DNA of 63,956 nucleotides, filler included, from Reclinomonas americana ATCC 50394 (Eukaryota), in the NCBI GenBank assembly GCA_048213135.1. It is 13 parts of 13 records of this genome, joined end to end, with 100 filler letters (N's around TTAATTAATTAA, not from the genome) between each part and the next. Parts side by side here need not be neighbours in the genome. Positions count along the whole stretch, not along the records: positions 32,193 to 48,034 come from AFZH01019751.1; 12 more parts are not named here. One strand, 5' to 3'. The position numbers and the translations under genes are program-made. The notes below the pieces were generated by a model, which was not told the origin of the DNA, ran no database searches, and saw nothing but the letters and a program-made list of their open reading frames with translations. This document shows, one piece after another, positions 28,475 to 50,303 of the stretch (position 1 is the stretch's first letter; each line of letters opens with the position of its first letter).

Positions 28475-31400
28475 CTACGCGAATCCAAAGCCAACACACT
28501 GCGCAATCGCCGTCCGCAACACACGACCGAGCACCTCGGCCGACGAGTGATGCCAGCTGAGATCCAACTGCGGCACACAGGTGTGCGCCGTCGGGAGCTC
28601 TTCGACACCAGCCGCCGAGGCCACCACCAACACCGGTCGCGGATGCCCGAACGGCAGCCCCGGCAGATTGGTGACAAACTTGAGGAACTGGCGCAACTCA
28701 TCTTGTGTGAACTCGCGCAGCGCCTGGGCCAGTACATGGGGTGCCTCGCTCGCGTCAGGAAAGTGCTCAAAGCGCAGCAGGTCGATGAGGGCCTCGGCAT
28801 CTGTGCGAGCGGTGAGCGATGCGGTGGTGGGAGGGCAGATTGTAGAAGAAAAAAAAGAGACGCACCGACAGACTCCTGCGTTGCCGGCAGTGCGCGCAGC
28901 CATTCAAAGGCGCCCATGGAATTGAGCAGCTGCAGCATATTCGAGAAGAAATGAGTGCCATGAATAACGATTTGTCGACAACGCGTGCGCGCACACACAC
29001 CTGATCGCCCAACGCGGGTGCCAGACAATCCCGGACTCCGCGCTTAATTATTGAGATGGCGTCCAACCGGCCCTGACCCAGCAACACCGTGCGAGCGCGG
29101 GCACAAACGTACGACAAGCGATTCTCCTCCGTGACGCCATCACGTGCATCTGTGTTGCGAAGCAATCTCGTGAGCCACCCGCCATTCCAATCCCATTCTC
29201 CCAACCCGCACGCAACTGACAGTGCTTGGCAAAAACTCGGGTACAACATCGTCAAAGAACAACATGGAGGCCTCGAACTGCACCAGAGTGAAGCGCAAGC
29301 TCCTGGCCACCGACGGCACAATCACTTCGAGTGCGCGCAGCAGCGCCTCGGCAGCGTCGGCCGTCACATCATTTGGATCGCAAAACATGCGCGCGCGTGG
29401 AGTCGAGCCGAGCAGCTCCAGAATCACGTCCGAGTACAGGGGAGCCGGCAGCGCCGCGTGCGCCTCCGACAGACACTTGGCCAGGGCGCGACCGAACGCC
29501 AGCAACGTCAGCTCCGCTTGCTCTCGGTGTTCGCGCGACATGACGTGCAGCGGCGCCACGTGGTAGTACTGCGCGTCGTGCTCGTCCTCCCGCACGAATG
29601 CGTTCGATTTGGTGCACAGTTGCTCGAAGAACTGCAAGAGGAGCGGAGGGGGTGAGAAGGGTGAAGGGTGAAGGGAAAGAGACGCGAGGAAAGAATCAAG
29701 AAAAGCAACAGCAGAAAAGGAGCGAGAAGGGTAACGGGAAGGGGATGTGAGGAAAGGATCGCGTGTTGGGGCGACAAAGAGGATTATGAAAAGCAACAGT
29801 TGGAGAGGAGCAAGAAGGGTAACGGGAAAGAGATATGTGAGGAATGGATCGCGTGTTGGGACGACGGAGAGGATCAAGAAAGGCAAGGGCTGGGAAGAGC
29901 GAGAAGGGTAACGGGAAGGAGATGTGAAGGAAAGGATCGCCTGTTAGGGCGACAGATAGGATCAAGAAAGCAACAAGGGAAAGAGATGCGAGGTAACGAT
30001 CGCGTGTTGGGACGACAAAAAGGATCAAGAAAGGCAAGTGCTGGGGAAGAGCGAGAATGGTAAAGGGAAGGGGATGGGAGGAATGGATCGCGTGTTGGGA
30101 CGACGGAGAGGATCAAGAAAGCAACAAGGGAAAGAGATGCGACGAATGAACTGCGTGTTGGGACGACAAAAAGGATCAAGAAAGGCAAGAGCTGGGGAAG
30201 AGCGAGAAGGGTAACGGGAAGGGGATGTGAGGAAAGCATCGCGTGTTGGGATGACAAAGAGGATCAACAGGCGATGAGAAGAACAGTGTGTTCACAAACC
30301 TGAGCGAAAAACTCCGCAGTGAGGCCGCCCGCATCCACTCCTTCCTCGCCCAAAAACGAGACACGCAGTGGCACAATCCAGTTCGACGGCTCCATGGACA
30401 GGAAGAACGAGGCGCCATCGGTGACCAGTGATTCGCGCGAAACTTGAATCTGTGCAAGCCCACAGTTGAGTCACTCAGCCTCTTCGACAAAGAAAAATCT
30501 CTGCATGCCCGCAACTGGCATAATGTACGGTCCGGCGTGTGTCCTCATGCGTGCGAGTTGCTCACGAATCGACTGTACGCGCTGCTCGGCCAGTGAAGTG
30601 GCCGCGTCGACGGCATACGCCGGTAATGAGTGGAGGCGGAAGAACGGGTGCGCCAGTGCGTCGAGCGCCGAAATGCGTTTCTTTGGATCGGGTTCAACCT
30701 GCGTGCCGCAGCAGTGAGACAACACACGACAAACACACACGCGTGCACACATCACTGACCAGCGCCAGAACGAGCGACAGAAGCGTGGGCGAGGTGATGG
30801 CGGCCTGATCCAGATGGACCTCCCAGCCGCCGCTGGCACCCGCGGGCACCACCGACACTGCTCGATCCATGCCGACCATCGCCTGGAAAAGCATAACACC
30901 CAGAGCAAACAGGTCGCGCGATGGCTCCGTGGAGGCCAGCAGGCCATTTCGCTGACGGGCCATGCACTCGATCACCTCGGGTGCGAGGAAGCCGTCGGAG
31001 CCTTCGGCTGTGTGAGTGCAGGGAGAGGTGAGTGCAAATAGTGGGGAAGCAGCGTGCATAGCAGTACACACCTGCCACTGCCAAGCGGCGCGTCAGCGGT
31101 CGAGGACCATCGGCAATGTCGTAGTCGACGATGCGCGGCTGCCCGTCGGCACTGATAATCACATTCTCAAAGTTCAAGTCGCAATGCACCACGTCGTGCT
31201 GATGGAGAGCCACCAATCCCTGCATCATCCCCCGATGTGTGTTCAATTGTGGTCTCTCACAACTGGCAACGATGTGCAAGAACAACCGCACCTGCAACAA
31301 TCCAAAGAACACCTCGCGGATCTCGCTCTCCGATCGCTGTTTTTCGCGGCACCATGTTGTCAACGAGCGCAGTCCCGGGTAGGAGAACACGGCAATCACA

Positions 31401-31790
31401 TCCTCGGCGCTCTTGTCGCCCAAAAAGTAACCGCGCAGGCGGACCACGTTCGGGTGTTGTACCTGCAAGAGAGAGTGAGAGAGAGAAAAGGGACAGACAA
31501 AAAGAAACAATGAAACAAACCTGTCGAAGAATGCTGACTTCGCGGAGGAAGCGGTGGCGTGCCTGCTCGTCGCCGAGCGTGTATCGCTTGAGAATCCATC
31601 GACTGCCGTCCTCTCGCAACCTGTATGACAGGAATTAGCGCCGCGAAGCAAGAAAAGAGACGAGTGAGGTGACGCACCTTGCGCGATACACGTTCCTCCG
31701 ACCCGCCACCTCCTCCACGTCGACGAACGCGTCCTCGCGTACCGTCGGCATCAGGAAGGGGCTTCGCAGTAGGACGGTGGGGATGACGTG
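28475..31790 (-). CDS. Protein kinase-HECT E3 ubiquitin ligase fusion (5' partial)
   Basis: Kinase: WILKRY, FLREV, HPNVV, VHCDLNFEN, VDYD, FLAPE, DLFALGV, DPKKRISALDALAHPFF. HECT: VSFLGEEGVDAGGLTAEFF, FLKFVT, LPTAHTC, terminal GFGFA*. Confidence 0.85.
29690..30270. repeat. Intronic minisatellite, about 7 units of ~63-90 bp
   Basis: Core GATCGCGTGTTGGGACGAC..AGGATCAAGAAAG recurs near 29757, 29847, 29935, 29998, 30086, 30153 and 30238. Confidence 0.85.
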
Positions 31791-32699: not shown

Positions 32700-35474
32700 G
32701 CCACGACAGACTGGTGCGGCAGGAACTAAAGATAAAAAGAAGACAGAAAAGAAAAAGAGAAGGGAATATGCAAGCTGTGCATAGATGAGCTGCCAGTGGG
32801 AGAAAGAGCGTTCAGTGCAGGCTTCAGGAAGCTGCACGTCAGCCCCCACCCCCCTTCTTTCACGCGCCTTCCCCGTTCCCTCCTCCCTGTGCTCCCACAA
32901 CGCACCTCCGTGACCACACTGACAGTGCCCCCCTCCTCATTCTCTCTTTCCCTCTCTTCCTCTCTTCCTCCCTGTGCTCCCACAACGCACCTCCGTGACC
33001 ACACTGACAGCCCGCAACACCGACGGAATGCACAACGAATGCAGCTGCCGCCGCATTTCCACCACCTTGCGGTGCATCTCCGCAATCGGGCTGCTCTGTG
33101 CGTCGGCACTGGAGCTGCCCTGCGGTGGACTCGATTCGCGATCCCCATTCCCCGACGACGAGTCGCCTAACGAGCAGTGTGTCAGGCCACCACAATAATA
33201 ATAATAATACCCCATTTTCTTGGTGACAGAACGCAACTGCCGGAACCGCCCGACAACGGATCGTAGCGCTGCCGTAATTGCGCCAGCTCGGCCTCGGCTC
33301 GCAACCGCGCATCCCGCTCTCTCCGCAACTCCGCGCGCGCCTCGTCGGCCATCTTCCGTGACTCACTATTCCGCTTCTCCAGCTCCTGCTGTCGCGACCG
33401 CAGCTGCTCCTCGCGCTGGCGATGCACGAGCTCATTGCGCTCATGCGCCTCCCGTTCCGTGGTCAGTATCTGAATGAAATTCGCTTGCAGCTCCTCGCGA
33501 GCAGCGCGTGCGGCGGCATCGGAGCTCTCCAGGATCATACGCGCTTGGATGAGCGCCGTCTCGTGTTCTTGCAATGCACGTTGCAATTGAACGACATCAT
33601 GCGAGCCTGTGGAGCACAAATTGTTGGACATTCGAACACGAAGAATCTTAATGGGGTGAGGGCGAATAACATCGATTAGAATGAGAAACGAGGTGAGTGA
33701 GAGGCAATGGGAGACGGGAAAAGGCGGTAGGGAGGAGACGGGAGGGTAGGAGATGGGAGCACGTGAATAATATGCGACCAGAATAGGAGTGTTCGAATAA
33801 AGAGGAATAGTGGTCGCCAATGGTATCGGAGAAAGGCGGTGATAGCTGGGCGGGTGGCAGCATCAGTAGAGAAGAGAATAAAGTGAAGGTGGGAGGCGTG
33901 CATGAACGCGCAACAGAAGGAAAAAAAAAAGAGTAACGGGAGGAAATGAGCAAAGGGGAAAGGGGGAGTTTTGCGACACCAGCGGAGTGATGCACCACCA
34001 CCATCCCCATTGAGCCTGACGAAAAGAAAAGAAGAATGCCATGCACACAGAGAGGGAGAGAGAGAGAGGCAAAAGAAGGGAAAGAGAGAGAAGAGCGGAA
34101 ACGAATGAGGGTATATTCGAAAGAGGAAAAGAGGAGAATGTGCTCGCAGGCACAGTGTGGAGAAACAGGCACAACAAGGTGGCAAGTGCCAGGCACGAGC
34201 GCGCGCGTGTGAGTGCGTACGTGACGTGGGAGGAGGAGAAGCAGGAGGAGGACATCAACCCGCCCACCACCACCGCAACCACTCACGACGCCCGCCGCCC
34301 AAAACCAAACAACAAACCACCGTGTTTTTGATGATCTTCTGCAGACGACGACGAAGAAGACTGACCGGCAGACAAGTGCTCCATCAGCAACTGCTGCAAC
34401 ACCTCGCCCGCCATTCGATTTCCCATGGCGCGCGCCACATCCGCCGGCGTTCGCTCGTGCGCGTCTCGCACCACCAACAACCACGGTTGCTCATTCACCA
34501 GCCACCTAACACGCCCACGATCAAAGTCAGAAACGGCGAATACACAAGGAAACGCTCTTCTTGTGTAACACGCTACCGTATCATGTCAGTCTCGTCGAGC
34601 TGCGCCGCCAAATGCAACGGCGTCGTCCCGGCAACGTGCGGCGGCACAGGCACAGCAGCGTCGCCGTCAGCTTGTTTCTCGTCCTGGTGGAGGTAGGCCA
34701 GCAGCGACTCGACCGGGACTCCATTCGCGCGCAGCATCATGGCCTTGAGCAGGCGTCGCTGCGAGGCCAACTGGCGCACCTCACTCGACATGGCGGCGTC
34801 GGGTAAGTCGGCTTTGAAGAGCGCGCGGTTGCGGTAGAGGATGAGTCGCGCCTCTTCAATGTCGCCCTTGGCAATGGCCACGCTGAGGGCGGCCGCCTCC
34901 TCGGACGAGTAATGCTGCGGGAGCACGAGTGTGGAGGGCGAGATGCGCACCACACCAACTGATGACGTCGATGATGAGTCAGTGGCGACTTTCTCCACTG
35001 CTGCTGCTGCTGCTGGTGGAGGTGGAGGTGGAGGTGCGGCATCGACCTCAGTTCTGTATTTGAGGCAAAGCGAGTGAGTGTGTCATACGGAGTGAAAAGC
35101 GAGTGGGCGTGTCTAACACTCAAATATGGTCTCACACGGTCTGTGCCCCCACTCACGCACACGTGCGACTCATTGTCTCTCTCGTGCGCGCGCTCACAGG
35201 CGCATGTGCGCAGAGACAAGTGTGTGAGGGAAAGAGAGCGTGTACAAACGATTTTTGAGAGGAGAGAATGTCTCATTTGGGCTGAGCAGAATATCCATTG
35301 CCATCACACACACAGTGGCGATATGCCTGAGGGTGCGAAAGGAATGTGTTGCTCTGTGGGAGAGCAGAGAGGAGGTGGTGTGGTGCATGTGCGTGTGTGT
35401 GACAGGGGGAGGAAGAAAGAGAGAGAGTGGTGCGTGTGGTGTTTAGCTCACCCTGTGGACATGGCCGCGGACAT
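32700..35474 (-). CDS. Ankyrin-repeat plus coiled-coil protein (3' end uncertain)
   Basis: GTTPLHLAAQLDETDMIRWLV...RDAHERTPADVA ankyrin motifs; a downstream coiled-coil exon at about 33240-33610. Confidence 0.6.
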
Positions 35475-35993: not shown

Positions 35994-38142
35994 TCACTCG
36001 CTCCACTCGTCACCCGTGCCACCCAGCGCCTCGTCCAATCTCGCCAGCTGCTGGCGATTGAATCCGCGGTCTGTGACAAAGCGCGACGGACTGGGGTACT
36101 TCTCCACGAAACGCATGTCGACGCATGCAATCCCACTGCGCGCCAGCTCCGAGGCCGGGATACCGGTCTTCAGATCGTCGTCCGAGTCGCACGGCTTGCT
36201 CGGCTCATTCATGAACGACAACAGCACTTGTCGCACGGGTTCTCTCGATGACGATGATGACGACGAAGAGCCTGTTGCGCCGCACAGTGAGTTGCAAAGG
36301 AGAAGCCACTTATCGGTATGACTGCAACGCACCACCACCACTGCCGAGCACCCGACGAAAGAAGGTGCGAATTTCGTCGGTCTCTATCCGACCCGACACG
36401 CGCAGAGCAACCAGAACTGCGTCGATGTGGCGAGGACGATCGGCCAGGGAGACCACTCGGAAGGCACCTGAGGCGATTCTTCGTGTTGAGTACACTCACT
36501 CCACCTCCAATCCTCTCAGTGTTGTCTCCTCACGTACCTGCAGCTTGCAACGCTCGGCACACCTCGGGCAGGCAGTACGCCGACGTAAAGTCACGCTCTG
36601 CAATTTGTGAGCACACCACAACAATCCGCGGAACGTACATCATCCGCGGCACTGGCGACATGATGGCACGCTCGGCATGCCCGTCGTCGTCGTCGAGTGC
36701 AAACTCCATGTCGGGTGCTCGAGTGCGATTCACGTGGTCCACAGATTCAGCAGGTGGCGGAAGTGGTGGGAGAGGTGGCGAGGGTGGAGTTGGAGGAGGC
36801 GGTGGTGGTGGTGGTGGTGGTTGCACGACAGGCTGACGTGCTGGCGGTGGCAATGGTCTTCCGGTCGCGCTCGGTGCTGCGCCAGTGCCTCCAACTGTAA
36901 CCTGCTGGAGATTGGTGTGGTGAAAACAAGAGAAGGCATCAATGCAAGAGTGCAGGTGGACAGACGCACCAGCAGCGATGGCACGGCGTGTAACTGGCGA
37001 AAGGCGGAGTTCTCAGCACACAGACTCTGGATGGAATCCTGCTGGTAACATAGCACGGTGTGCAGCTTTGCCAACAGGTCATCCACATTGGGCAGCTGCC
37101 GCAGTGCGCTGACACACTGGTCGCTCTGCCCGCTCAACGCCTGCAGTTCAGACAGGCGGTGTGCAGGCAGCGACGGTGGAGGTGCGGCTGCAGTGGAGCG
37201 CGCATCAAGTTTTCGAAGTGGCTCGCCGCCTGTACCACGGAATCAGAAGCACGACGCAGACCACCGAGGGAGTGCAATGAACCTGCGACCACGGCATACA
37301 CAGCGAGTTGCACCACTTGCGAGCCGGTGCTGCTGAAGAGCTCGGGATCAAGTCGCCTTGTGTGATCGTCAAAGGGTTCGAATGAGTGGCCCGGGTTGCT
37401 GTGGCACGCAAACAGTGGCATTGAGTGTCGAGTCGTGGTGGATGCACAGCACGGCATGCTCACCACACCACGAGCAGTGTGTCTTGTGCTTGATACGTCG
37501 CAGCACTGGAAAACATACTACGCGATGGAACAAGCAACACACCGTGCTGCAACGCGAGATCCTGCGCCACTGCACTCAGCACGCGCGAGGAAGAGACGGC
37601 CATGACAGTGCATATAGTAGACGCTCACCGGACCAGCGCCAAAGCCAATCACTCTCGAGTCCACCTGTGGATGCTTCCGAACCAATCCGCACGCATAATC
37701 TTGATGCCTCGCGACACCTGCATTCTCCAGCACACACGCCACTGGTTGACCGCCCACTGCCAGCTGGAGTCCACACGTCAGAGACTCACAAGAGCTTCTG
37801 CTTTCACACGAGCGCGCAACTGCAAACAAGAACGCATGTGGGTCACATCGCGCGGCTTTCCACGAACGTGTTGTGTATGCGCCCACAATCGACTGATTGG
37901 CGGTCCACAACACCACAAACAACGACGAGGAAGCGTATCGCTCGGCGACATTCGCCACGTCAGCAGTGGAGAACCCCGAGCGACCACTTCGCGACGAATG
38001 CAACTCGTGAAGACGAAGTCGTTGCCTGGAAAACACAAGTGAGCATGCAGTGGTGCAGAAGAGTGGCATGTGTGTGTGCGCGCGCGCACCCATCACGGCC
38101 AATCCAGCACAGCAGCTGCAACTGTTGCTCGTCAGAGAGCAT
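35994..38142 (-). CDS. TLDc domain - helical/poly-Pro linker - uncharacterised alpha/beta domain, copy 1
   Basis: Spliced: MLSDEQQLQLLCWIG...LRLHELHSSRSGRSGFS...SLFVVLWTANQSIVGAYTTRSW...DPHAFLF...IGFGAGPDL...VVQLAVYAV, a divergent TLDc. C-terminal domain RIVVVCS...DAVLVALRVSGRIETD...RQVLLSF...CVDMRF. Confidence 0.7.
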
Positions 38143-38382
38143 TGGATAGGAAGCGGGAAATTGCGTCCTGTCTGCTGCAGCTGGGCAGTTGGCGCGCTTC
38201 TCAAAGACGCACTCTCACTCACAGTCTCTCAGACTACAACACACACCAACAGCGGCAACGAGACGCACTGAGATTCTGTCGCGTTTCGAAACAGTCCTGT
38301 CAATATCCACCAAGACGGGAATGCATGTCCTGTCGCATGCAAACGGAATCACAATTTTCTCTGTATTTTGTGTGTGAGAGCC

Positions 38383-41300
38383 ATGGCAAGCGGATCTCGT
38401 CCTCGTCGCCAAATTCTGCCTGTGGTGGAGAGCGCGCTGTTGACTGAGGCCGATGTGACGGCCATTCAGAACTTTCTCGGATACTCGTCGTGGTGCGCTC
38501 ATGTCTCGCAACACACACTCTCTTCTTCTTTTTTTTCTTACCTCTTCTAACCTCTCTCTGTGTGTGCACGTGTGCATCAGTCGTCTGCGCCTGGTGTATC
38601 GATTCACGCGAGATGGTTCCGCCTATGGAACATTCCATCAAAAGACGGATGCCTCCGGCCTGCGCAACACCATCACCATTGCCGGAGGTGGCAGTGGTGG
38701 GTCGCAGTTCCTGCTTGGTGGCTTCAAGACCACACACGTTGCGTCAATCCATCCGTCATGTACAAATGTAATTGATCTGATTTTGTGTGTTCCATTAGTG
38801 GGGCACTCACGGGCAGTACCATTACGACTCGGAGGCGTTTATCTTCTCCGTGAGTTGCTGTCTCGGTGCAGTCATTGATTGGTGTTGCTCGTTCTCATCT
38901 GTCTTCTTGAATACATAGTTGATTGTGCAAGGCAAGCGTGATGAGCGCCGTTTCGACCAGTTCCAGAACCAGGCCAGTGCGGTGTACCACCACAATAACT
39001 ATTTCGGCGCCTGGGGGAGCAATCACGTTGCGCTTCCATTGCCAGCTCGTGCGTTTGCAGTCAGCAGGAGAAATTCTCACCTTGCGCATGCTGTCGCATG
39101 TTTGCAGGATTTGTACTTCAACAGCAACAACCACGTCTACGTGTGAGTGTCTCACTTACTTGGACCATGCTGTCCATCCTGGCTAATGTGCCTCTCCTCC
39201 CCTCGTGCAGCAACGTCGGCGGAACATACAGCCCACAGGGTTTGGCGGCGAACTGGATGCTCGGAGGCAACGGTAGTATGGCCTGGACGGAGCTGGAGGT
39301 GCACGAGATCATCGGTAGATCTCCTCGTATGCAGCTTCTCGTGTCGAAGCACTGATCCGTTTCCGTGTCTGCAGACACCACGGTCGACATTGGTGCGTTC
39401 GAGCGCTTCTTGGAGGAGCGACTTGGCGAGCGGGTGGATGAGATTGTGCATCGCGTTCTCCCCGACGCCCTGCGCACCATCCTGCCGGAGGCCATCAAAT
39501 CTGCGCTCCCCGCAGCGCTGCCCGCGGCACTGCCGCCGGTGCTGAACGAGCTGCTGCCCAACACGATCAATGGCCTCGTAGACCAGAAGCTGCCGCCGGC
39601 GATGCAGCGACAACTGGCCGACGGCCTTGCACGCGCATTGCCGCAGGCCGTGCAGCGTGACCTGCCCGCCGCACTGTCCGCCGCTCTGGACGACACTCTC
39701 CCGGATGCCATCCAACAGCCCATTGCCGATGCTGTAGCTGAGGAGCTGCAGCGCCGCCACAAGGAGGTTGCAGCTCGCATTCTGCTACAGGCGCAGCACG
39801 AGGCGCCCGGTGGAGGACTCGTGGACGAGTTGAGTGTGTCGCCAGTGAGTTGTGTTTCATTGTCTGCTGACTTCCCTATCGTGGCAGACGTGAGCAACTG
39901 CTGCAAAAGCTGGCCAACACCACGCGCCTGGAGTATCTGCGTCAGGTGTTTGGCCCCAAGTTGCGCATCAATTTCTTGGTGGCCGGCGAGGTCAAGGCCG
40001 GCAAGACGTCGCTGCTGAACACCCTGAAGAGCATTGGGCTGAACTCGCCGGTAAGATCGCTGCTCAAAGCAGGTGGCCACCGTCTCCTGATCTTGTATGC
40101 ACAACATCACAGGGCGAACGTGTGGCTTGCTCTGGTGACTCCTCCACGAGCCTGACGCAACGACTGATGGTGCACAAGGCGCTGCGCGACCCTCGGTTCC
40201 AGCACTTGGCGTTCCTGGACATGATGGGCTGGCAGAAGGGATTGTATGAGCGCGGTGAGACCCCTCTGTGCTCTCGAAGTGGAAGTAATGCATGATATTG
40301 ACAGAGTGCTGTGCAGACGAGCTTGCGTACATTGTGCAAGGCAAGGCCAAAGCCGGTTGGGACTTCCGCCGCATGGGCCGCGAAGACCCGACGTGCTTCA
40401 ATCCCCACCCAACTGTTTGTGACGAGGTGAGACTTGAGCGACAGGCGAATTCACAGCGTTCATCAGCCACCCTCTTGTTCTCTTTCCCTATGTCACTCTT
40501 CTGCCGACTGCTCATTCAGGTTTTGGGTTGACTTGCATTGTGTCATTGCAGGTGCACTGCCTGCTGCTCATCATCCCGGCCGACAATGTCGGCAATGGTG
40601 CCACCCGCGAGAAGATGCTGACCTTTATCTCGCGTGCCCGCGATGCTCTGCCGCCGGGTTCGTAGACGTTGTTGGACAGTTCTCATCCATGCATGGATTC
40701 ACCACTCACTCACTTTCTTGTAGACGGCATCCCCACCATGATTCTCGTCTCCAAGGTCGACCTGCTGGGCGGCGAGTTTACCGGCAATGCGTTGCTGGCC
40801 GAGGCGCACGCCGACACCATGGCCATGCGCGACCGCATGTGCGCTTCGGGTGACGGCGGCTACGGTGTGCAGCGCGTGCGCTTCATCCGCACCTACCGCG
40901 ACGAGCGACTCCAAGACCTCGACGTGGAGGTGTCGGTGCTGCGTGCCATTCACGAAGCCTACCTCCTCGCACTCAACAATCTGGAGACGCTGGCCGAGCA
41001 GATGGAAGAGAATCCCGCCGCTCTCGGCTCTAGTGGTCGCTTCCCGACTCTGGAGCAAGCCTATGGCGCCGGCTCGGAAGTCGAGCATGACAGTGGACAC
41101 TCGCCGCTCAGCTCGAGCGCCCACAGCACCAGTGCTGTGATCTCTCCGCAGTCTGTGGCCTCTGGGAGTGGATCTGCGGTGCCGGTGCCGCAGCCAGTCA
41201 GTGCGTGGGTGAATCCCAATGGGCCGGGTGATGTGCCGGTGGCGGGTGAGTGGCGAGGAGAAGGAGGAGGGGGGAAGAGGAGAAGGGGAAGGGGAAGGGG

Positions 41301-41943
41301 AAGGAGGAGGGGGGTGGGGGAAGGGGGACGAGGAGAAAGAGGAGGAGGAGGGGAAGGAGGGCAAAGAGGGGAAGGAGGAGAAGAAGAAAAAGAGGAGGAG
41401 GAGGAGGAGGTGGAGATCGAGGTGGAGAAGGAGGAGGAGAAAGACGAGGAGGAGGAGTAGGAGGAGGAGGAGGAGGAGAAGAAGAAGAAGAAGAAGAAGA
41501 AAATGAAGAACAGAAAGAAGGAAGAGGAGGAGAAGGAAAAGAAGAAGAGGAAGAAGGAGAAGGAAGAGGAAGAAGAAGATAGGAGAAGACGAAGGAGACA
41601 GAGAGAAGAAAAATGGACGTGGAAGAGAACAAGAGGAAGTAACAGACTGATCTTTGGTGTGCTTGCAGATTTCCTTCGCCAGTACCTGCAGCACTTGTGG
41701 GAGCCGGAGACATGCGCACAAGTGGCTCAGCATTTGCGAAGCAAGGGAATCTATGATGCCGAGGTGAGGGCAGCGTGGAAAAGGAGTGTTGCGAGCGTAA
41801 CTGAATCCGTCGTGTGGATGCAGAGCTTGTGCGAGACGTGGCGTGAGGATTCGACGAACGAGGACAACTTCCCCAGCAGTGTCTTCAATGCGGGCATGCG
41901 TAAGACGTTGGAGAAGCAGCTGAACAAGGCGTTTTCGACTTGA
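38383..41943 (+). CDS. IFI44/IFI44L-like protein: TLDc - LP-repeat helical linker - P-loop GTPase - extra C-terminal domain, copy 1
   Basis: TLDc: LRLVYRFTRDGSAYGTFHQKTD...LLGGFKTTHW...DSEAFIFS...ELEVHE. GTPase: INFLVAGEVKAGKTSLLNTL, FLDMMG, VHCLLLIIPAD, ILVSKVD, TYRDERLQDLDVEVSVLRAI, in IFI44 motif order. Confidence 0.8.
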
Positions 41944-42403
41944 AGGGGGAAGGGAGGAAAAGGGGGAGAGAGGGAGAGGGTGAAGAGAAGGGCAATGTAT
42001 GGGTGCCCCGAGCTTTTTGAAGCATCTGTAACTTGCAGAAGAAGAGACAAGAGCTAGCACGTGATGCTCATTGTTGACATAGGTCTATGAGTACTTGTAC
42101 TTTGGGCGCGACAACAACCATCCAAACACAGCAGCATGATGATCGCCATCTTGAGTGAATACCAAATGGAATGACGAATATTACGCACTGAAATCGTGTT
42201 GCCGTCGCCGCCGGTGGTTGCGTTGAACAAAACAGCTGGTAAATGCGTTGAGCAAGACTGCTGATTGCTTGACGGTGCATAAATGCTAATCATGATCGAA
42301 GTCCCAGGCTTCAGACCTCCAAAAGAGCACCTGCTGCTGGCATGCCGTCGAGATTGGATTCGTCAACGCCGGTGCCGCTCGCTTCTTAAACAATCCACAC
42401 TGT

Positions 42404-44545
42404 TCACTCGTCACCCGTGCCACCCAGCGCCTCGTCCAATCTCGCCAGCTGTTGGCGGTTGAATCCGCGGTCTGTGACAAAGCGCGACGGACTGGGGAAC
42501 TTCTCCACGAAGCGCATGTCGATGCATGCAATCCCACTGCGTGCCAGCTCCGAGGCCGGAATACCGGTCTTCAGCTCGTCGTCCGAGTCGCACGGCTTTC
42601 TCGGCTCATTCATGAACGACAACAGCACTTGTCGCACGGGTTCTCTCGACGACGATGATGACGACGAAGAGCCTGTTGCTCACCACAGTGAGTTGCAAAG
42701 GAGAAGCCACTTATCGGTATTACTGCAACGCACCACCACCACTGCCGAGCACCCGACGAAACGCCGTGCGAATCTCGTCAGTCTCTATCCGACCCGACAC
42801 GCGCAGAGCAACCAAAACAGCGTCGATGTGGCGAGGACGATCGGCCAGGGAGACCACTCGGAAGGCACCTGAGACAATTCTTCGTGTTGAGTACACTCAC
42901 TCCACCTCCAATCCTCTCAGTGTTGTCTCCTGACGTACCTGCAGCTTGCAACGCTCGGCACACCTCGGGCAGGCAGTAGGCCGACGTAAAGTCACGCTCT
43001 GCAATCTGTGAGCACACCACAACAATTCGCGGGATGTACATCATCCGAGGCACTGGCGACATGATGGCACGCTCGACATGCTTGTCGTCGTCGTCGATTG
43101 CAATCTCCACGTCGGGTGCTCGAGTGCGATTCACGTGGTCCACAGATTCAGCAGGTGGCGGAAGTGGTGGGAGAGGTGGCGAGGGTGGTGGTGGTGGAGG
43201 CGGTGGTGGTGGTGGTGGTGGTGGTGGTTGTACGACAGGCTGACGTGCTGGCGGTGGCAATGGTCTTCCGGTCGCGCTCGGTGCTGCGCCAGTGCCTCCA
43301 ACTGTAACCTGCTGGAGATTGGTGTGGTGAAAACAAGAGAAGGCATCAATGCAAGAGTGCAGGTGGACAGACGCACCAGCAGCGATGGCACGGCGTGTAA
43401 CTGGCGAAAGGCGGTGTTCTCAGCGCACAGACTCTGGATGGAATCCTGCTGGTAACATAGCACGGTGTGCAGCTTTGCCAACAGGTCGTCCACGTTCGGC
43501 AGCTGCCGCAGTGCGCTGACACACTGATCGCTCTGCCCGCTCAATGCCTGCAGTTCAGACAGGCGGTGTGCAGGCAGCGACGGTGGAGGTGCGGCTGCAG
43601 TGGAGCGCGCAGCAGGTTTTCGAAGTGGCTCACCGCCTGTAACACAGAATCAGAAGCACGGCGCAGACAAAAGAGAGAGTGCAATGAACCTGCGACCACG
43701 GCATACACTGCGAGTTGCACCACTTGCGAGCCAGTGTTGCTGAAGAGCTCGGGATCGAGTCGTCTAGTGTGATCATCAAAGGCCTCGAATGAGTGACCTG
43801 GGTTGCTGTGGCACGCAAATGGTGGCATTGAGTGTCGAGTAGTGGTGGATGCACTGCACAGCATGCTCACCACACCACGAGCAGTGTGTCTTGTGCTTGA
43901 TACGTCGCAGCACTGGAAAACATACTACGCGACTGAACAAGCAACACACTGTGTTGCAACGCAAGATCCTGCGCCACTGCACTCAGCACGCGCGAGGAAG
44001 AGACGGCCATGACAGTGCATATAGTAGACGCTCACCGGACCAGCGCCAAAGCTAATCACTCTCGAGTCCACCTGTGGATGCTTCCGAACCAATCCGCACA
44101 CATAATCCTGATGCCTCGCGACACCTGCATTCTCCAGCACATACGCCACTGGTTGACCGCCCACTGCCAGCTAGAGTCCACACGTCAGAGACTCACACAA
44201 GCCTCTGCATTCACACGAGCGCGCAACTGCAAACAAGAACGCATGTGGATCACATCGCGCGGCCTTCCACGGACGTGTTGTGTATGCGCCCACAATCGAC
44301 TGATTGGCCGTCCACAACACCACAAACAAAGACGACGGAGCGCATCGCTCGGCGACATTGGCCACCTCTGCAGTGGAGAACCCCGAGCGACCACTCCGCG
44401 AAGAATGCAACTCGTGAAGGCGAAGTCGTTGCCTGGAAAACACGAGTGAGCATGTAGTGGTGCAGAAGAGTGGCATGTGTGTGTATGCGTACCCATCACG
44501 GCCAATCCAGCACAGCAGCTGCAGCTGCTGATCTTCCGAAAGCAT
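42404..44545 (-). CDS. TLDc plus uncharacterised alpha/beta domain protein, copy 2
   Basis: Paralog of 35994-38142 with the same exons (MLSEDQQLQLLCWIG...LDEALGGTGDE*). Confidence 0.7.
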
Positions 44546-44648
44546 CAAGGACAACAGGCGTCCTGCACGACACTGAGTAACTCCTGCTCTGCCTACTATG
44601 GTCGCCGACTGCTGACCACTGGTCACCAACAAGACCTGTCTGTCTATA

Positions 44649-44749
44649 CTCGACGTGTTTTCGACTGTCAGGTAGTCGACGTGTTTTCGACTCGACTGTC
44701 ATAAAGTCGACGCGTTTTCGACTGTCGCACAGTCGACGCGTTCTCGACA
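44649..44749. promoter_or_regulatory. Four-copy GTCGACGYGTTTTCGAC motif array in a bidirectional intergenic region
   Basis: Copies at ~44650, 44675, 44706 and 44732, between the divergent ATGs at 44545 and 44791. A regulatory role is inferred from position only. Confidence 0.4.
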
Positions 44750-44790
44750 TTGTCGTGAGATTTGGACTTTCTTTGCATTGTGTGAGAGCC

Positions 44791-47700
44791 ATGGCAAGCG
44801 CTTCTCATGCTCGTCACGAGGCGCTGCCTGTGGTGGACAGCACTATGCTCACGGAAGATGATGTGACGGCCATTCAGAACTTCCTTGGATACTATTCGTG
44901 GTGCGCGCTTGTGGAGCACACTGTCTTCTTCTTGCTGCGTCTCAGTGTGCATCAGTCGTCTGCGTCTGGTGTACCGGTACACACGAGATGGTTCGTCGTA
45001 TTCGACATTCCATCAAAAGACGGATGCCTCTGGCCTGCGCAACACCATTACTGTTGCGAGTTGTGGCAGTGGGAGATCACAGTGCCTGCTGGGTGGATTC
45101 AAGACCACACACGTTGCGTCGAATGGATTTGACATGGTATCTCCCCGGCACTCGCATTCACCAACGCAGCACACGCGTGCAGTGGGGCACTCACGGGCAG
45201 TACCACTACGACTCGGAGGCGTTCATCTTCTCCGTGAGTAGCTGTCTGGGTGCAGTCATTAACTGATAGCTCTTGCTCTCAACTGTCTTCTTGCATGCAT
45301 GCGCACAGTTGATAGTGCAAGGCAAGCGCGATGAGCGTCGTTTTGACCAGTTCCAGAATCAGGCAAAGGCGGTGCACCACCACAACAGCTACTATGGTGC
45401 CTGGGGGGCCAATCAGGTTGCGCTTCCATTGCCAGCTCGTGCGTGTGTATCGGAAGGAATTCTCACTTTGTTCGTCGCATAATCGTAGGATTTGTATTTC
45501 AACAGTGACAACAACGTCTATGTGTGAGTGTCTCACTGTTTAGCTTTCGGTCTGCGCTGTTGACAATGGCTGAGTATCCTTTCCTCCCCAGCAACGTCGG
45601 CGGAACGTACAACCCGCAGGGTCTGAATCAGTACTGGATGCTGAATGGCAACAGTAACATGGCCTGGTCGGAACTGGAGGTGCACGAAGTTATTGGTAAG
45701 TCTCTTTGCATGCAGCTTCTCGTGTCGAAGCACTGAACCGTTTCCTCTCCACAGACACCACAATCGACATTGGTGCGTATGAGCGCTTCTTGGACGAGCG
45801 ACTGAGTGAGCGGGTGGGTGAGATTGTGCGTCACGCTCTCCCCGACACCCTGGCCGCCATCATGCCGGAGACCATCAAGTCCGTGCTCCCCGAGGTGCTG
45901 CCGCCAGTGTTGAATGAGCTGCTGCCCAAAACGATCAGCCGCCTCGTGGACAAGAAGCTGCCGGCGGCTATAGACCGGCCGTTGGCCGATGGTCTCGCGT
46001 GCGCATTGCCGCTGGCCGTGCAGCGTGACCTGCCTGCCGCACTGTCAGTCGCTCTGCAAGCCACTCTTTCGGATGCCATCCAACAGCCCATCACGGATGC
46101 CGTGAGCGAGGAGTTGCGGCGTCGCCACAAGGAGGTTGCAGCTCGCATGCTGCTGCAGGTGCAGCGCGAGACGCCCGGTGGAGGACTCGTGGACGAGTTG
46201 AGTGTGTGACCCAGGATTTGTGTTGACTGGCTGCTGACTTCCATATCGTGGTAGACGTGAGCAACTGCTGCAAAAGCTGGCCGACACCACACGACTGGAG
46301 CATCTGCGTCAGGTGTTTGGCCCCAAGCTGCGCATCAATTTCTTGGTGGCCGGCGAGGTCAAGGCCGGCAAAACGTCGCTGCTGAACACCCTCAAGTGCA
46401 TTGGCATGAACTCGCCGGTGAGATTGGTGTCCGAGAGGCATCGCAAGAGGTCGTTCTCATCTCGCAGTCTACAACATCACAGGGCGAGCGTGTGGCTTGT
46501 TCTGGCGAGTCTTCTGTGAGCCTCACGCAGCGACTGATGGTGCACAAGGCGCTGCGCGACCCTCGGTTCCAGCACTTGGCGTTCCTGGACATGATGGGCT
46601 GGCAGAAGGGACTGTATGAGCGCGGTGAGACCCCTCTGTGCTCTCGTAGTGGAAGTAATTCATGATATTGACAGAGTGTTGCGCAGACGAGCTTGCGTAC
46701 ATTGTGCAAGGCAAGGCCAAAGCCGGTTGGGACTTTCGTCGCATGGGCCGCGAAGATACGGCGTGCCACAATCCGCATCCGACTGTTTGCGACGAGGTGA
46801 GTCTCGAGCGACACGCGAATTCACAGCGTTATGCAGCCACCCTCTTGTTGTCTTTCCCTAGATCCACCAGAGAGAAAGAGAGAGAGAGACGGGAGTCACA
46901 CAGCTCAAAGTACACTCGTCTACGGGCTCCGCGTCCCACACGAGGCCGGGCTTGTCAGACGAGGCGGATCTCTCGAACGGGTTCGAGTAGCTGCATGCAT
47001 GAGAAGGGCACGACGGGCAAGATATGGATAGCGAGAAATGTGTGAGAGGGAGACAGGGAGATGGACAGAGGAAGAGAAACGAATGGAAAGATACAAGCGA
47101 GGGAGAGAGAGAAAGAGAGGAGAAGAGAATGAAGAAGGGCGATGTAAGTGATTCACAAAGAGATGCGACACGTACAAGGCACCCATGACCACCCCCCTCT
47201 CCACTCTTCTGCCGACTGCTCATTCAGGTTTTGGGTTGACTTACACTGTGATAATGCAGGTGCACTGCCTGCTGCTCATCGTCCCGGCCGACAATGTCGG
47301 CAACGGTGCCACCCGCGAGAAGATGCTGACCTTTATCTCGCGTGCCCGCGATGCTCTGCCGCCGGGTTCGTCGACTGCGTAGTGTTTTGTTCAGCGCATC
47401 GTCTCACCACTCACTCCCTTGTAGACGGCATCCCCACGATGATTCTCGTCTCCAAGATCGACCTGCTGGGCGGCGAGTTTACCGGCAATGCGTTGCTGGC
47501 TGAGGCGCATGCAGATACCATGGCCATGCGCGACCGCATGTGCGCATCGGGTGACGGCGGCTACGGTGTGCAACGCGTGCGTTTCATCCGCACGTACCGC
47601 GACGAGCGACTTCAAGACCTCGACGTGGAGGTGTCGGTGCTGCAAGCAATCCACGAAGCCTATGTGCTGGCGCTCAACAATCTAGAGACGCTAGCCGAGC

Positions 47701-47956
47701 AGATGGAGGAGAATCCTGCTGCTTTCGAGTCTAGCAATCGCTTCCCGACCACAGAGCAGGCATTGGACCGTGAGTCTGTCACTCCCGGCGCAGATGCCGA
47801 TCGTGACGGTGGACACTCGCCGCTCAGCTCGAGCGCCCACAGCACCAGTGCCGTTCTTTTCCCGCAGTCCGTGGCCTCTGGGAGTGGGGTGCCGGTGCCG
47901 CAGCCAGTCAGTGCGTGGGTGAATCCCAATGGGCCGGGTGATATGCCAGTTGTCGG
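44791..47956 (+). CDS. IFI44-like TLDc-GTPase, copy 2 (last exon lost in the gap)
   Basis: Paralog of 38383-41943; GEVKAGKT, FLDMMG and SKID are intact. Confidence 0.8.
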
Positions 47957-48163
47957 TGAGTGACGAGGAGAAGAAGGGGGAGGGAAGGGGGGGGGGGGCG
48001 GTGAGATCGCGACGACGACGACAGGGAGTAGGAGNNNNNNNNNNNNNNNNNNNNNNNNNNNNNNNNNNNNNNNNNNNNTTAATTAATTAANNNNNNNNNN
48101 NNNNNNNNNNNNNNNNNNNNNNNNNNNNNNNNNNGGGAGAGAGGGAGAGGGAGAGGGAGACAG

Positions 48164-49155
48164 CGAGCTTGCTGGGCTGAGGCGGATGCGCGAAATGTTC
48201 CAGAGTTCGAATGTATGTGACAGAGATGAAAGAGGAGCTGATTGAAAGAGAGCAGGTGATGTGTAGAGAGAGGGAGGAGAGAGAGAGAGAGAGAAGTTAA
48301 AAAAGGATATCGCACCGCCAAGACTCAACGAAAACTGCGAGATGGGAGCGAGAGGCGCAGCATGCATCGCTAAGCTCACTGAGATGCTTAACGAGTGAGA
48401 GTGGTCGTTGCACAACGAAGTCTGGTCGAATTTTGCAGAATGGTGCAAGAGAACACAGGATTGCATCGCACAGCGATGGCGCCGCTGAGCAGCAGTTTCC
48501 AGAGATTTTCGCGCTGTAGTCAGCTTGTCGCATGTACTTTCCATTCCCTTTCTCACTCTCACTCTCTCTCTCTCTTCCCTCTCTCTTGTCTCTCCCTCTC
48601 CTCCCTCCCTCTCCCTTCCCTCACTTCCCTCGGATCCACAGGAGTTCGCTCCCGGCCGAAGTGCCGTGGTGTCGACCATGATGGGCATCATTTGCATCCA
48701 CGAGCAAGATTTTGACACGGCGATCAAGTACCTGCACACGCGAGACACGCCGGAGATGGCGGCGCTGCTGGCGGAGGTGTATCTGCGGATGAACCGTGTG
48801 GATTTGGCAGAGCAGGTGCTGAAGACGCTGGACGAGGATTCGGTGGTGTCGCAGTTGGTGGGAGCGCAAGTTGAGTCGGATAGGGAGAAGGAGGGAGGGG
48901 GAGAGAGAGAAGAGGCGACACCTAACGCCGTCCATGGTCAGCATGGCGTGTGTTAGTGCGAGTGAGTGCGTTGGTTTGAGTGAGAGAGGTGGAGAAATTG
49001 ACACGACCTGAAAGCTGCCTGAGCGTCAGCGCCTCACAAGTCAACGATGGCGTGTGTTAGTGCGAGTTAGTGCGTTTACGGAGAGAGAGAGAGTGGAATT
49101 AGCATGAATGTAGTGAGAGCGCGCCTACATTTGTAGGTGACACACACGCACACAC

Positions 49156-49217
<62 letters not shown>

Positions 49218-49286
49218 CGACGACGCGCGCGTCGTCGTCGTCGTCGTACGTACGTACGTACGGTCGGTCGGTCGGTCGGTGGTCGG

Positions 49287-49331
<45 letters not shown>

Positions 49332-49482
49332 NNNNNNNNNNNNNNNNNNNNNNNNNNNNNNNNNNNNNNNNNNNNTTAATTAATTAANNNNNNNNNNNNN
49401 NNNNNNNNNNNNNNNNNNNNNNNNNNNNNNNTGTAGGTGTAGGAAGTGCGACGTAGTCGTAGGTCGTGTGTGTCGAGAGAGC

Positions 49483-49539
<57 letters not shown>

Positions 49540-50303
49540 GATATGGCAGCGAGCCTGGGCGTCGCCTAAGGCGCCCGAGAGTCAGGGATGGTATGTGTGT
49601 GGGAGTGCGTGTGAGGCAGTGAGAGCGCACGTCTACGTGTGGTGTGTGCGTGAGAGCGAGAGTGAGTGACGACGCGTGAGATATGGAGTGTGTATATGTT
49701 GATGAGAATGAGAGTGGATGTACTGGTGCGCATTTGTATGCCTCTCGCTTTCCCCTCCCCTTATCCCCCCTTACCCCCTTCCCCCCTTCTCCCCCTCGCA
49801 GATCCTTCTGGCCAAGGGCGGCTCGCAGGCCGCCTCCGAGGCGCACTCCATGTACGAGGAGCTGGCACAGAAGCACGGCCAAACGGTGCTGCTGCTCAAC
49901 GGCATGGCGCTCAGCAAGATGGCGCAGGGCGAGTACGCCGAGGCGGAGAAGATTCTCATGGAGGCACTCAACAAGGTGCGTGTCTCAATGAAAGGGGACG
50001 CCCAGCGAAGAGCGGCACTCACACGCTCTCTGTTTTGTGTGTGCACAGCGTTCTAGCGACCCGGAAACGCTGATTAACCTGGCCGTGTGCGCGCAGCACT
50101 TGCAAAAACCGCAGGAATTGATTGGCCGCTACGTCGCGTTGCGTGCATATCTCCTCCTTCGCCCCGCCTCTCTTCGCCTTCCTTATCCCTCCGCGCACAG
50201 ACAACTGAAGAGCTCCGTGCCGAATCACCAGTGGGTGCGCGATTACACAGCCAAGGAGGAGGCGTTTGTGCGAGCGTGTGGCCAGTTTGGCGCCTCGGCA
50301 TGA
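48164..50303 (+). CDS. COPE: Coatomer subunit epsilon (5' partial, spans a linker)
   Basis: EVYLRMNRVDLAEQVLKTLDEDSVVSQLVGAQ/ILLAKGG...YEELAQKHGQTVLLLNGMA...EAEKILMEALNKRSSDPETLINL...RYVAQLK...HQWV. The first visible exon boundary is tentative. Confidence 0.9.

Follow-up and report, generated by a model that had tools for sequence, protein, structure and literature searches.

IFI44 is an antiviral protein of animals, and in plants RRS1/RPS4 and RGA5/RGA4 are examples of sensor/helper NLR pairs encoded head-to-head. IFI44 is described in bioRxiv 10.1101/2025.05.24.655954 as the sole TLDc protein with this domain at the N-terminus, its TLDc domain is reported to be very divergent (~15% identity to other TLDc domains; PMC5614904), and oyster IFI44L has been assigned TLDc and MMR_HSR1 domains (PMC11682996). 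Among the V-ATPase-binding TLDc proteins (OXR1/Oxr1p, NCOA7, NCOA7-AS, TLDC2, TBC1D24, mEAK7 and Rtc5p), an isolated TLDc domain is reported to bind the B subunit and to be sufficient on its own (PMC8608904). In this group of proteins the TLDc domain is C-terminal, and its partners are LysM, TBC or EF-hand domains.

The window analyzed here, a stretch of 63,956 nucleotides from Reclinomonas americana, is made of contigs chained by N44-linker-N44 joins. One contig (32193..48034), with such a join on either side according to the listed N runs and the linker read between them, holds the whole locus: two tandem copies of a divergent, intron-rich, protein-coding gene pair. Each unit of ~6.4 kb contains a minus-strand gene, here called M, and a plus-strand gene, G, arranged head-to-head. 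Unit 1 (35995..42395, 6401 bp) runs from M1 through the intergenic region to G1 and its 3' flank, while unit 2 (42396..48034) is visible over 5639 bp, the rest being truncated by the contig end. In pairwise alignment the units are colinear from 35995/42396 up to the contig end and unrelated to the left of these positions, and all 15 direct-repeat families have two copies, spaced 6367-6716 nt and 81-97% identical. The preliminary description, according to which the pair had been duplicated together as a unit, is thus borne out, as are its positions for the start codons: 38142 (minus) and 38383 (plus) are separated by 240 bp, 44545 (minus) and 44791 (plus) by 245 bp. Its first coordinate, 35994, falls on the stop codon of M1 (35994-35996). 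That the tandem arrangement could be an assembly artefact, with two haplotypes or dispersed paralogues misjoined, is extremely improbable. The assembly is certainly fragmentary, the 64 kb being joined from contigs at 12 places, and unit 2 stops at a contig end within a low-complexity tract; however, both units and the junction between them (41943-42404) lie within one gap-free contig, and the copies differ by a dS of 0.13-0.59, a 338-nt intron indel and their intergenic regions, which exceeds usual allelic difference. Around the locus lie genes of common housekeeping kinds (AAA ATPase, HECT, kinase, coatomer epsilon, MOR2/PAG1).

Gene models were built by hand from the genomic sequence, with 13 exons for G and seven for M. 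G1 (38383..41943, plus strand) encodes 782 aa. Exons 1-6 (38383-38492, 38581-38737, 38799-38849, 38919-39026, 39108-39142, 39211-39314) correspond to a TLDc-like domain, exon 7 (39375-39828) to a helical LP-rich linker of ~150 aa, exons 8-12 (39888-40050, 40113-40254, 40305-40426, 40552-40657, 40724-41245) to a GTPase and exon 13 (41669-41943) to a helical tail. The TLDc-like core begins in exon 2 (38581..38737), whose sole Pfam match was TLD, at E 0.038 for the exon and E 0.012 for the ORF (14-16 bits versus a cutoff of 24.5). Exon 8 (39888..40050) carries the P-loop, with the G1 motif GEVKAGKT. Its top Pfam match was IIGP (12.6 bits, E 0.073), the best Pfam matches for the GTPase being IIGP, Septin, SRPRB, EF-Tu and Dynamin, and when it was compared with PDB sequences, IRG-type GTPases accounted for 13 of the 16 matches at E<=10 (best E 0.12). 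A DxxG sequence, DMMG, was read as the G3 motif in exon 9 (40113..40254), and SKVD, of the NKxD type, as G4 in exon 12 (40724..41245), which ends in a low-complexity tail; neither exon had a match among PDB sequences, and no relatives were found for exon 12. The last intron (41246..41668) contains a purine-rich (GAG/AGA)n tract. G2 (44791..47955, plus strand) shows 12 exons, 690 aa and no stop; its last exon is not visible because the contig ends (48034) inside the last intron, in a tract matching that of G1. Intron 10 is 338 nt longer in G2 than in G1.

The predicted domain order of G (TLDc-like domain, helical linker, P-loop GTPase, helical tail) is that of animal IFI44. The likeness to IFI44/IFI44L, judged on a TLDc-like domain at the N-terminus and a P-loop GTPase after it, extends to the divergence of the TLDc domain, a trait of IFI44 and G alike. 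Unlike IFI44, which has ~450-480 aa, G has ~780 aa, with the LP-rich linker between its TLDc-like and GTPase domains and with a long low-complexity region as well as the helical tail. Among solved structures, the P-loop exon looks most like the IRG/IIGP-type GTPases by sequence. The resemblance to the IRG/p47 proteins Irga6/IIGP1, Irgb6 and Irgb10 extends from the helix preceding G1 through the P-loop into the residues after it, and, as in IRGs, the GTPase domain of G is flanked on either side by helical regions and has an xKVD G4 motif; the resemblance is nevertheless a sub-threshold match (E 0.07-0.12) in a single exon of 54 aa, with exons 9 and 12 giving no PDB match, and IRGs have no TLDc domain. 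The description of G as TLDc plus an IFI44-like GTPase stands as regards domain order and the G1, G3 and G4 motifs, although no match reached a curated cutoff.

M1 (35994..38142, minus strand) encodes 570 aa in seven exons (38142-38090, 38025-37629, 37505-37283, 37229-36970, 36904-36538, 36467-36333 and 36271-35994), with GT-AG borders at its six introns. The protein starts with a TLDc-like region (~aa 1-225), and a proline tract lies between a predicted coiled coil and the C-terminal domain, which spans about 170 aa (~aa 400-570). The TLDc-like core lies in exon 2 (37629..38025, 132 aa), where Pfam TLD scored 12.1 bits (E 0.19-0.21) versus a cutoff of 24.5 and, at E 0.19, ranked below the top row, Baculo_VP91_N (E 0.13); Pfam gave no family for the M1 read-through. 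All domain matches of M and G stayed below threshold because the queries were single exons. In Atlas, which reports language-model neighbours, PF07534 was the family of all 30 nearest named clusters of exon 2 (scores 0.92-0.93), with a recognition value of 2020, under the 2300 mark, and with the reservation that one third of shuffled proteins also show unanimous family agreement. With phmmer, exon 2 matched no TLDc protein among 1.84 billion representatives, the sole match being a spurious one to a bacterial CARDB protein, and it matched no TLDc sequence in the PDB; the AF2 model had a pLDDT of 33 and was unusable. The alpha/beta domain that had been proposed for the C-terminus of M found no significant support: the sole match, at E 1.1, was an FMN reductase with a flavodoxin fold.

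M2 (42404..44545, minus strand) has the same seven-exon layout and 94% protein identity to M1, and stops three codons earlier. Its modelled exon 2 contains an in-frame TAG (44171-44173), located in the copy-2 counterpart of a 72-nt segment (37718..37789 in M1) that may be an additional in-frame intron, GTGAGT...CAG; splicing would remove the TAG, and the segment aligns opposite a gap in G. Both visible copies had been described as looking intact. This holds in so far as the GT-AG introns are kept in both, but not for the last exon of G2, which lies beyond the contig end, nor, unless the 72-nt segment is spliced out, for M2 with its in-frame TAG.

In both copies of M and G all introns of the hand-built models are GT-AG. 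The exons of G1 and G2 are 87% identical and their introns 80%, with 479 of the 512 gap columns being intronic; dN/dS is 0.23 overall and 0.11 in the GTPase part. M1 and M2 also give a dN/dS of 0.23 (53.7 synonymous and 37.3 non-synonymous differences). Since the GT-AG introns are present in both copies and dN/dS is ~0.2, M and G are constrained coding genes, and all copies are under purifying selection. By domain, pairwise dN/dS ranged over 0.1-0.4 for G and 0.14-0.66 for M; this pairwise test, which is weak, gave no indication of diversifying selection in any domain of either gene. The introns of M1 and M2 are as similar as the exons, and therefore similarity by itself is no proof of constraint in M.

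As judged from exon structure and sequence, the 5' halves of M and G are anciently paralogous, and each gene encodes an N-terminal TLDc-like domain. Three of the six introns in the TLDc region of G have a counterpart in M with the same phase and within 0-2 alignment columns: M aa 17 and G aa 36 (phase 2), M aa 150 and G aa 142 (phase 0), and M aa 224 and G aa 188 (phase 1). In an hhalign comparison of M with G the core motifs were paired (E 0.32, not significant). BLASTP of M1 against G1 detected no significant similarity (best E 4.2, in unrelated regions), and their global alignment had a z of 1.2, with 35 of 300 shuffles scoring equally high. The structural premises of the preliminary description, an N-terminal TLDc in both genes among them, are largely upheld, with Pfam scores for the domain below cutoff. 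For M the assignment as TLDc-like, based on the 12-bit Pfam match, the Atlas neighbours and the three introns in common with G, is provisional.

Chance matches in an M N-terminus that is not TLDc, or a decaying pseudogene in the place of M2 or of both M copies, its likeness to the other copy being maintained by gene conversion, would mean that there is no real TLDc pair. The phmmer, PDB and AF2 results for M, its 12-bit Pfam score for TLD, which was not the top row, the TAG in the simplest M2 model and the equal conservation of M introns and exons would fit such a case. We consider it very unlikely, however, given the dN/dS between M1 and M2, the intron positions and phases common to M and G, the agreement of the Atlas neighbours, and the position of the TAG inside a plausible GT-AG intron opposite a gap in G.

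The explanation we favor, tentatively and at slightly less than an even chance, is a duplicated unit of paralogous TLDc-like genes that would have originated by inverted duplication and whose products may dock on the V-ATPase by analogy. The M-G pair would have arisen when a set of TLDc exons was duplicated locally in inverted orientation, with M and G later gaining different C-terminal modules. In endolysosomal or phagosomal membranes the V-ATPase may be the docking site of their TLDc domains, by analogy with all TLDc proteins tested, docking on the B subunit being taken from those proteins as described in PMC8608904 and 10.1101/2025.05.24.655954. At the membrane, G might conceivably be a GTP-driven switch or an oligomerizer, and one may speculate that M would be an adaptor or effector carrier. 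The likeness to the V-ATPase-binding proteins is one of domain family, and provisional; none of them has been described with a GTPase, IFI44 excepted, or with M's succession of coiled coil, proline tract and C-terminal domain.

The sequence between the divergent start codons bears on how far the two genes may act together. Intergenic region 1 (38143..38382, 240 bp) and region 2 (44546..44790, 245 bp) are not conserved in their core, with 56% identity and 91 gap columns, and region 2 contains a tandem repeat of 26-31 bp at 44650-44748 that is absent from copy 1. In the preliminary description M and G had been read as possibly forming a co-regulated two-component defence system; such a cell-autonomous module of sensor and executor would have a bidirectional promoter and tandem expansion under pathogen pressure, and would resemble the head-to-head plant NLRs. 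The resemblance to paired plant NLRs is one of layout (related divergent genes, a short common upstream region, a duplication-prone locus), M and G having no NB-ARC, LRR or TIR domains and no integrated decoy. The proximity of the divergent starts, the joint duplication of M and G, the IFI44 domain order of G with a P-loop closest to IRG immunity GTPases, and a mosaic divergence between copies that is typical of tandem arrays would all agree with a defence module, as would the report that NCOA7-AS, a TLDc protein, is an interferon-induced antiviral factor (PMC8329711; 10.1101/2025.04.01.646557). Nevertheless, the differing intergenic cores, together with a dN/dS of 0.11-0.66 across domains without diversifying selection (a weak pairwise test), argue mildly against the co-regulated two-component claim. 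PADLOC models matched none of the M or G exons, no recognized effector signature was seen in M's C-terminal domain, and only two copies are visible. We regard the defence module as improbable; that the pair may have an immune role is suggested solely by analogy to IFI44, to IRG proteins and to NCOA7-AS.

A less improbable possibility, although still an unlikely one, is that M and G are independent neighbours, each with a role of its own (such as housekeeping regulation of V-ATPase, lysosome or oxidative stress), and that the 6.4-kb duplication merely spanned both, the head-to-head layout being a remnant of how the paralogues arose, by local inverted duplication in a compact genome. The genome is indeed locally compact, with short introns (50-125 nt) and convergent G1 and M2 whose stops are ~460 bp apart; the housekeeping nature of the surrounding genes, the different promoter cores, purifying rather than diversifying selection and the mostly non-immune roles given for characterized TLDc proteins in PMC5614904 and PMC8608904 point in the same direction. 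On the other hand, a paralogue pair with a short common 5' region has survived duplication with both members still constrained, and the IFI44/IRG-like architecture of G has so far been tied to defence in animals.

No relatives were found in any of the collections searched. The M copies, whose dS is 0.13 and whose introns are as similar as their exons, became homogenized later than the G copies (dS 0.36), pointing to gene conversion within the tandem array.

The M/G pair lies wholly within one gap-free contig (32193-48034), in which pairwise alignment revealed a similarity that is colinear from 35995/42396 to the end of the contig (48034); the flanks to the left of 35995 and of 42396 are unrelated to each other. 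Two tandem units can thus be delimited, unit 1 at 35995-42395 and unit 2 at 42396-48034, the latter being cut by the end of the assembly. In agreement with this alignment, the repeat search identified 15 families of direct repeats, all of them with two copies, spaced 6367-6716 nt apart and 81-97% identical, so that the duplication of the pair as a unit, claimed in the preliminary description, is confirmed. Each unit carries M, a minus-strand gene coding for a TLDc-like N-terminus and a C-terminal domain, and G, a plus-strand gene coding for a TLDc-like domain and a GTPase. They are arranged head to head, with the start codons at the positions originally assigned to them (38142/38383 and 44545/44791), leaving spacers of 240 bp (M1-G1) and 245 bp (M2-G2). 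The linkage is present in 2/2 copies within the window, both derived from one duplication event, and tblastn of the gene models against the window revealed no third copy of either gene. The DNA is eukaryotic, with a G+C content of ~57%. The contigs chained in it are 1-16 kb long and the 24 runs of N correspond to 12 joins within 9020-62845 (e.g. 48035-48134), in each of which two runs of 44 N enclose a 12-base linker with a stop in every frame; the order of genes from one contig to the next may be artificial.

Gene models were built by hand from reading frames, GT-AG sites and the alignment of the two copies. According to them, G1 (38383-41943, plus strand) has 13 exons and encodes 782 aa, and M1 (38142-35994, minus strand) has 7 exons and encodes 570 aa. 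All introns are of the GT-AG type (12/12 in G1 and 6/6 in M1), with the sites kept in copy 2, and their lengths are between 50 and 125 nt, with the exception of the last G intron (423 nt, purine-rich); introns this short and genes this closely spaced are compatible with many microbial eukaryotes. The models are supported by the higher identity between G1 and G2 in exons (87.1%) than in introns (79.5%), by the location within introns of 479 of the 512 gap columns in the alignment of the G copies, and by low dN/dS values: 0.23 for G1/G2 overall (0.19 in the TLDc part, 0.41 in the linker and 0.11 in the GTPase) and 0.23 for M1/M2. Two candidate sites, 9 nt apart, exist for the donor of G intron 7. 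The only public run touching the locus provided one 430-nt contig (38550-38979), which lacks splice joints and was rejected as RNA; since it is colinear straight through two introns, it corresponds to genomic DNA.

Both copies had been considered intact, a view that holds in part. The conserved GT-AG sites and the low dN/dS are in its favor, while G2 is open over 690 codons and the contig end falls inside its last intron, and the simplest model of M2 contains an in-frame TAG at 44171-44173. This codon could be a recent nonsense mutation, but it falls within a stretch of 72 nt that could be an in-frame GT-AG intron (37718-37789 by the coordinates of copy 1), and the translation of this segment of M aligns to a gap in G; on balance we lean, by a modest degree, towards an unrecognised intron. 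The stop of M2 is located three codons before that of M1 because the duplication breakpoint is within the last codons of M. As for low-complexity sequences, the last G intron (41246-41668) harbors a purine-rich (GAG/AGA)n tract with TRF periods of 3 and 26, and it is in the corresponding tract of copy 2 (47956-48034) that the assembly is interrupted, so the array may extend past the contig end. Intron 10 of G2 (46797-47259) is 338 nt longer than that of G1 (40427-40551) because of a GA-rich insertion; the exons flanking it are 90-97% identical between G1 and G2. The proline tract of M corresponds to a plus-strand (GGT)n/(AGGTGGTGG)n repeat (36752-36821 and 43153-43228, with M on the minus strand), 6 bases longer in copy 2, which makes it a length-variable low-complexity linker.

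Divergence between the two units is not uniform. M1 and M2 are 94-95% identical, in introns no less than in exons, with a dS of 0.13; for the G copies dS is 0.36 over the whole comparison, with 0.59 for the TLDc region and 0.25 for the GTPase region, and the spacer between start codons has 56% identity between copies, with 91 gap columns. A mosaic of this kind is typical of tandem arrays undergoing repeated gene conversion or unequal exchange. The spacer of copy 2 contains a 26-31-bp tandem repeat (~3.6 copies, 44650-44748) whose counterpart is absent in the M1-G1 spacer, and being private to copy 2 it makes the upstream sequences of M1-G1 and M2-G2 different. The mosaic pattern implies that the promoter core is not conserved between the two pairs, and the idea of a conserved bidirectional promoter was dropped on these grounds. 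The TLDc domain of G was also considered as a target of positive selection, an idea discarded given its dN/dS of 0.19, and the pairwise test with the G and M copies gave no sign of diversifying selection.

Family scans were run exon by exon on contiguous translations, which have low power, and results for TLD were referred to the Pfam profile (PF07534, 170 positions, gathering score 24.5 bits). The ORF of G exon 2, a single ORF, reached 16 bits (E 0.012, profile positions 14-60) and exon 2 alone 14.4 bits (E 0.038), TLD being the sole family reported; both scores are below the cutoff. G exons 4 and 6, scanned singly against Pfam, had no match. The score of M, also below the cutoff, was 12 bits (E 0.19-0.21, profile positions 35-94); it was not raised by joining exons 2 and 3 by read-through, and in one Pfam scan TLD ranked second behind an unrelated baculovirus family. 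No TLDc protein was retrieved with M exon 2 in a phmmer search against 1.84 billion representatives, the sole match being a 2498-aa bacterial CARDB/DUF11 surface protein that was rejected as spurious, nor was there any PDB sequence match for this exon. An AF2 model of M exons 2 and 3, read through with the intron between them and with X in place of the stop, reached a mean pLDDT of 33.4 and was unusable for judging the beta-sandwich fold expected by comparison with the solved TLDc domains of zebrafish OXR2 and NCOA7-AS. In the ESM-Atlas, 30 of the 30 nearest named clusters of M carry PF07534, with scores of 0.92-0.93, a result of low recognition value; according to the tool's warning, neighbours may also be unanimous by chance.

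Direct comparison of M and G gave no significant sequence similarity (BLASTP E 4.2; global alignment z 1.2), and hhalign paired the core motifs with an E of 0.32, also not significant. The evidence for a relationship comes from the introns. In an M/G alignment made without reference to them, the three firm introns of M in the region (3/3) match three of the six of G in phase, within 0-2 alignment columns: those at aa 17 (phase 2), aa 150 (phase 0) and aa 224 (phase 1) of M correspond to those at aa 36 (phase 2), aa 142 (phase 0) and aa 188 (phase 1) of G. As a rough estimate, the chance of such a three-intron coincidence would be ~1e-4. The positions and phases of these introns indicate that the N-terminal domains of M and G have a common descent, and M and G are constrained, divergently oriented paralogues that were duplicated as a unit. 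We consider it quite likely that the two N-termini are anciently paralogous and probably of the TLDc type. The assignment of a TLDc domain to both genes in the preliminary description is plausible: in M, the intron match, the Atlas neighbours and the motifs aligned by hhalign speak for it, but Pfam TLD stays below 24.5 bits in both genes. The existence of the M/G pair is a solid observation; the domain calls are plausible, with scores below threshold.

In the GTPase part of G, the G1 motif (GEVKAGKT) is in exon 8, the G3 motif (DMMG) in exon 9 and the G4 motif (SKVD, SKID in copy 2) in exon 12. Both copies have, as judged from the agreement of these motifs and their order with GxxxxGK[ST], DxxG and [NTS]KxD, the signature of a TRAFAC-class P-loop GTPase, and the set appears intact. 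The Pfam rows for exon 8 were IIGP, Septin, SRPRB, EF-Tu, Dynamin and FtsK (E 0.07-0.2), five of which are GTPase families; MMR_HSR1 was absent from the six rows of this P-loop exon. The score against IIGP (PF05049, cutoff 24 bits) was 12.6 bits and covered profile positions 34-60 only. In the PDB, 13 of the 16 sequence matches of exon 8 at E<=10 were IRG proteins (best E 0.12), namely structures of Irga6/IIGP1, IIGP1C, Irgb6 and Irgb10. Exons 9 and 12 had no PDB sequence match, the read-through of exons 11-12 retrieved unrelated PDB rows only, the NCBIfam scan generic P-loop rows only, and exon 12 had no named Atlas neighbour above 0.77. Exon 7 encodes a helical, LP-rich linker; DUF445 and a NACHT N-terminal helical domain, the only families it matched in Pfam, scored weakly, and these matches are probably compositional.

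In the hand models of both G1 and G2, the TLDc-like exons (1-6) precede those of the GTPase (8-12) in a single frame chain, which results in the domain order of IFI44 and predicts one polypeptide with an N-terminal TLDc domain, for which the call is weak, followed by a GTPase. IFI44 and IFI44L, widely used interferon-signature genes whose molecular mechanism is poorly understood, have this domain order in common with G and are the closest known architecture, the likeness being one of domain order; G differs from them in its long linker and tail, in the organism it comes from and in being paired with a divergent paralogue. The structure searches returned no solved IFI44 structure. As to the GTPase having been described as IFI44-like, the domain order agrees with that description; among solved structures the P-loop exon is nearest to IRG proteins, below the cutoff, and the G domain may be of IFI44 type or of IRG type. 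The literature search, mostly of titles and abstracts, found no report of divergent TLDc pairing, in line with the initial remark that no description of it was known, and among the matches listed no title or abstract dealt with an IFI44-like gene or a TLDc-GTPase from outside animals; in the papers covered, the layout of a TLDc domain plus a GTPase is reported for animals alone.

Beyond its TLDc-like domain, M has a heptad-like region, the proline tract and then ~170 residues in which strands and helices alternate, alpha/beta by eye. A TIR-like domain was considered for this C-terminus. Scanned singly, M exons 5-7 had no Pfam, PADLOC or NCBIfam match at E<=10, and exon 7 had no PDB sequence match; the sole PDB hint for the C-terminus was a flavodoxin-fold FMN reductase (E 1.1), limited to the first strand. 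PADLOC gave no match to any exon scanned. At the exon level, a TIR or other flavodoxin-fold effector is not supported by these scans, and of the alpha/beta domain first proposed there stands the alternation seen by eye, against the lack of a library match other than the FMN reductase hint.

Binding to the V-ATPase B subunit is described as requiring no more than an isolated TLDc domain (PMC8608904), TLDc proteins are presented as regulators of V-ATPase assembly (10.1101/2025.05.24.655954), and NCOA7-AS is introduced as an interferon-induced antiviral TLDc protein (PMC8329711; 10.1101/2025.04.01.646557). Because of these three properties, the most economical model would be one in which M and G are both anchored, through their TLDc domains, to the V-ATPase of endolysosomal or phagosomal membranes; G might work there as a switch under GTP control, and M might be an adaptor or carry an effector. 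M and G may act together and may have a part in defence, but neither idea finds support, the promoter core not being conserved and the pairwise test giving no diversifying selection. The most elaborate version, a pre-animal, IFI44-type cell-autonomous defence working as a two-gene system, with G as TLDc-GTPase switch and M as TLDc adaptor with an effector domain, expressed from a shared divergent promoter, both docked through TLDc on the V-ATPase of phagosomes that contain pathogens and forming a heteromeric sensor/executor, seems to us improbable. Were it true, it would provide IFI44, whose mechanism in animals is unclear, with a partner of ancestral origin as well as a defined target. Finding this layout in an unrelated microbial eukaryote rich in introns would place the origin of the architecture further back in time, the adjacent paralogue would suggest that TLDc serves to bring two different C-terminal activities to a common platform (the V-ATPase, for instance), and a simpler organism would serve to test the docking idea. 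If M and G are ordinary neighbours, the locus would still illustrate cleanly how an exon set is duplicated, how domains accrete and how gene conversion acts within a tandem array.

Relatives were also searched for elsewhere. The word-indexed protein search with G exon 7 and G exon 12 gave none, and none was confirmed among 468 pattern matches in metagenome contigs. In viral contigs, 118 pattern matches led to two loci (L001 and L002), with 33% identity; the first was rejected as a relative, its ORF being a phage Mtd-type tail protein. With respect to the surroundings, ORFs at 34283-35082 (minus strand), just downstream of M1 and on the same strand, are ankyrin-like by eye only, and the one at 34576-35082 had no Pfam family at E<=1e-4. 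There is no sign of a larger defence island: the coatomer epsilon exons at 48489-50053 (plus strand), on the two contigs that follow the pair, and the C-terminal domain of MOR2/PAG1 (cell morphogenesis) at 6949-8121 (plus strand) are housekeeping. A neighbouring contig carries a protein kinase (30755-31750, minus strand), the C-terminus of a HECT ubiquitin ligase (28478-28903, minus strand) and a two-domain AAA ATPase with two long exons (25936-28421, plus strand; AAA E 1e-38 to 1e-39). The search with the exons of the latter retrieved mostly archaeal CDC48, the named eukaryotic rows being a jakobid (52% identity) and Closterium (45%).
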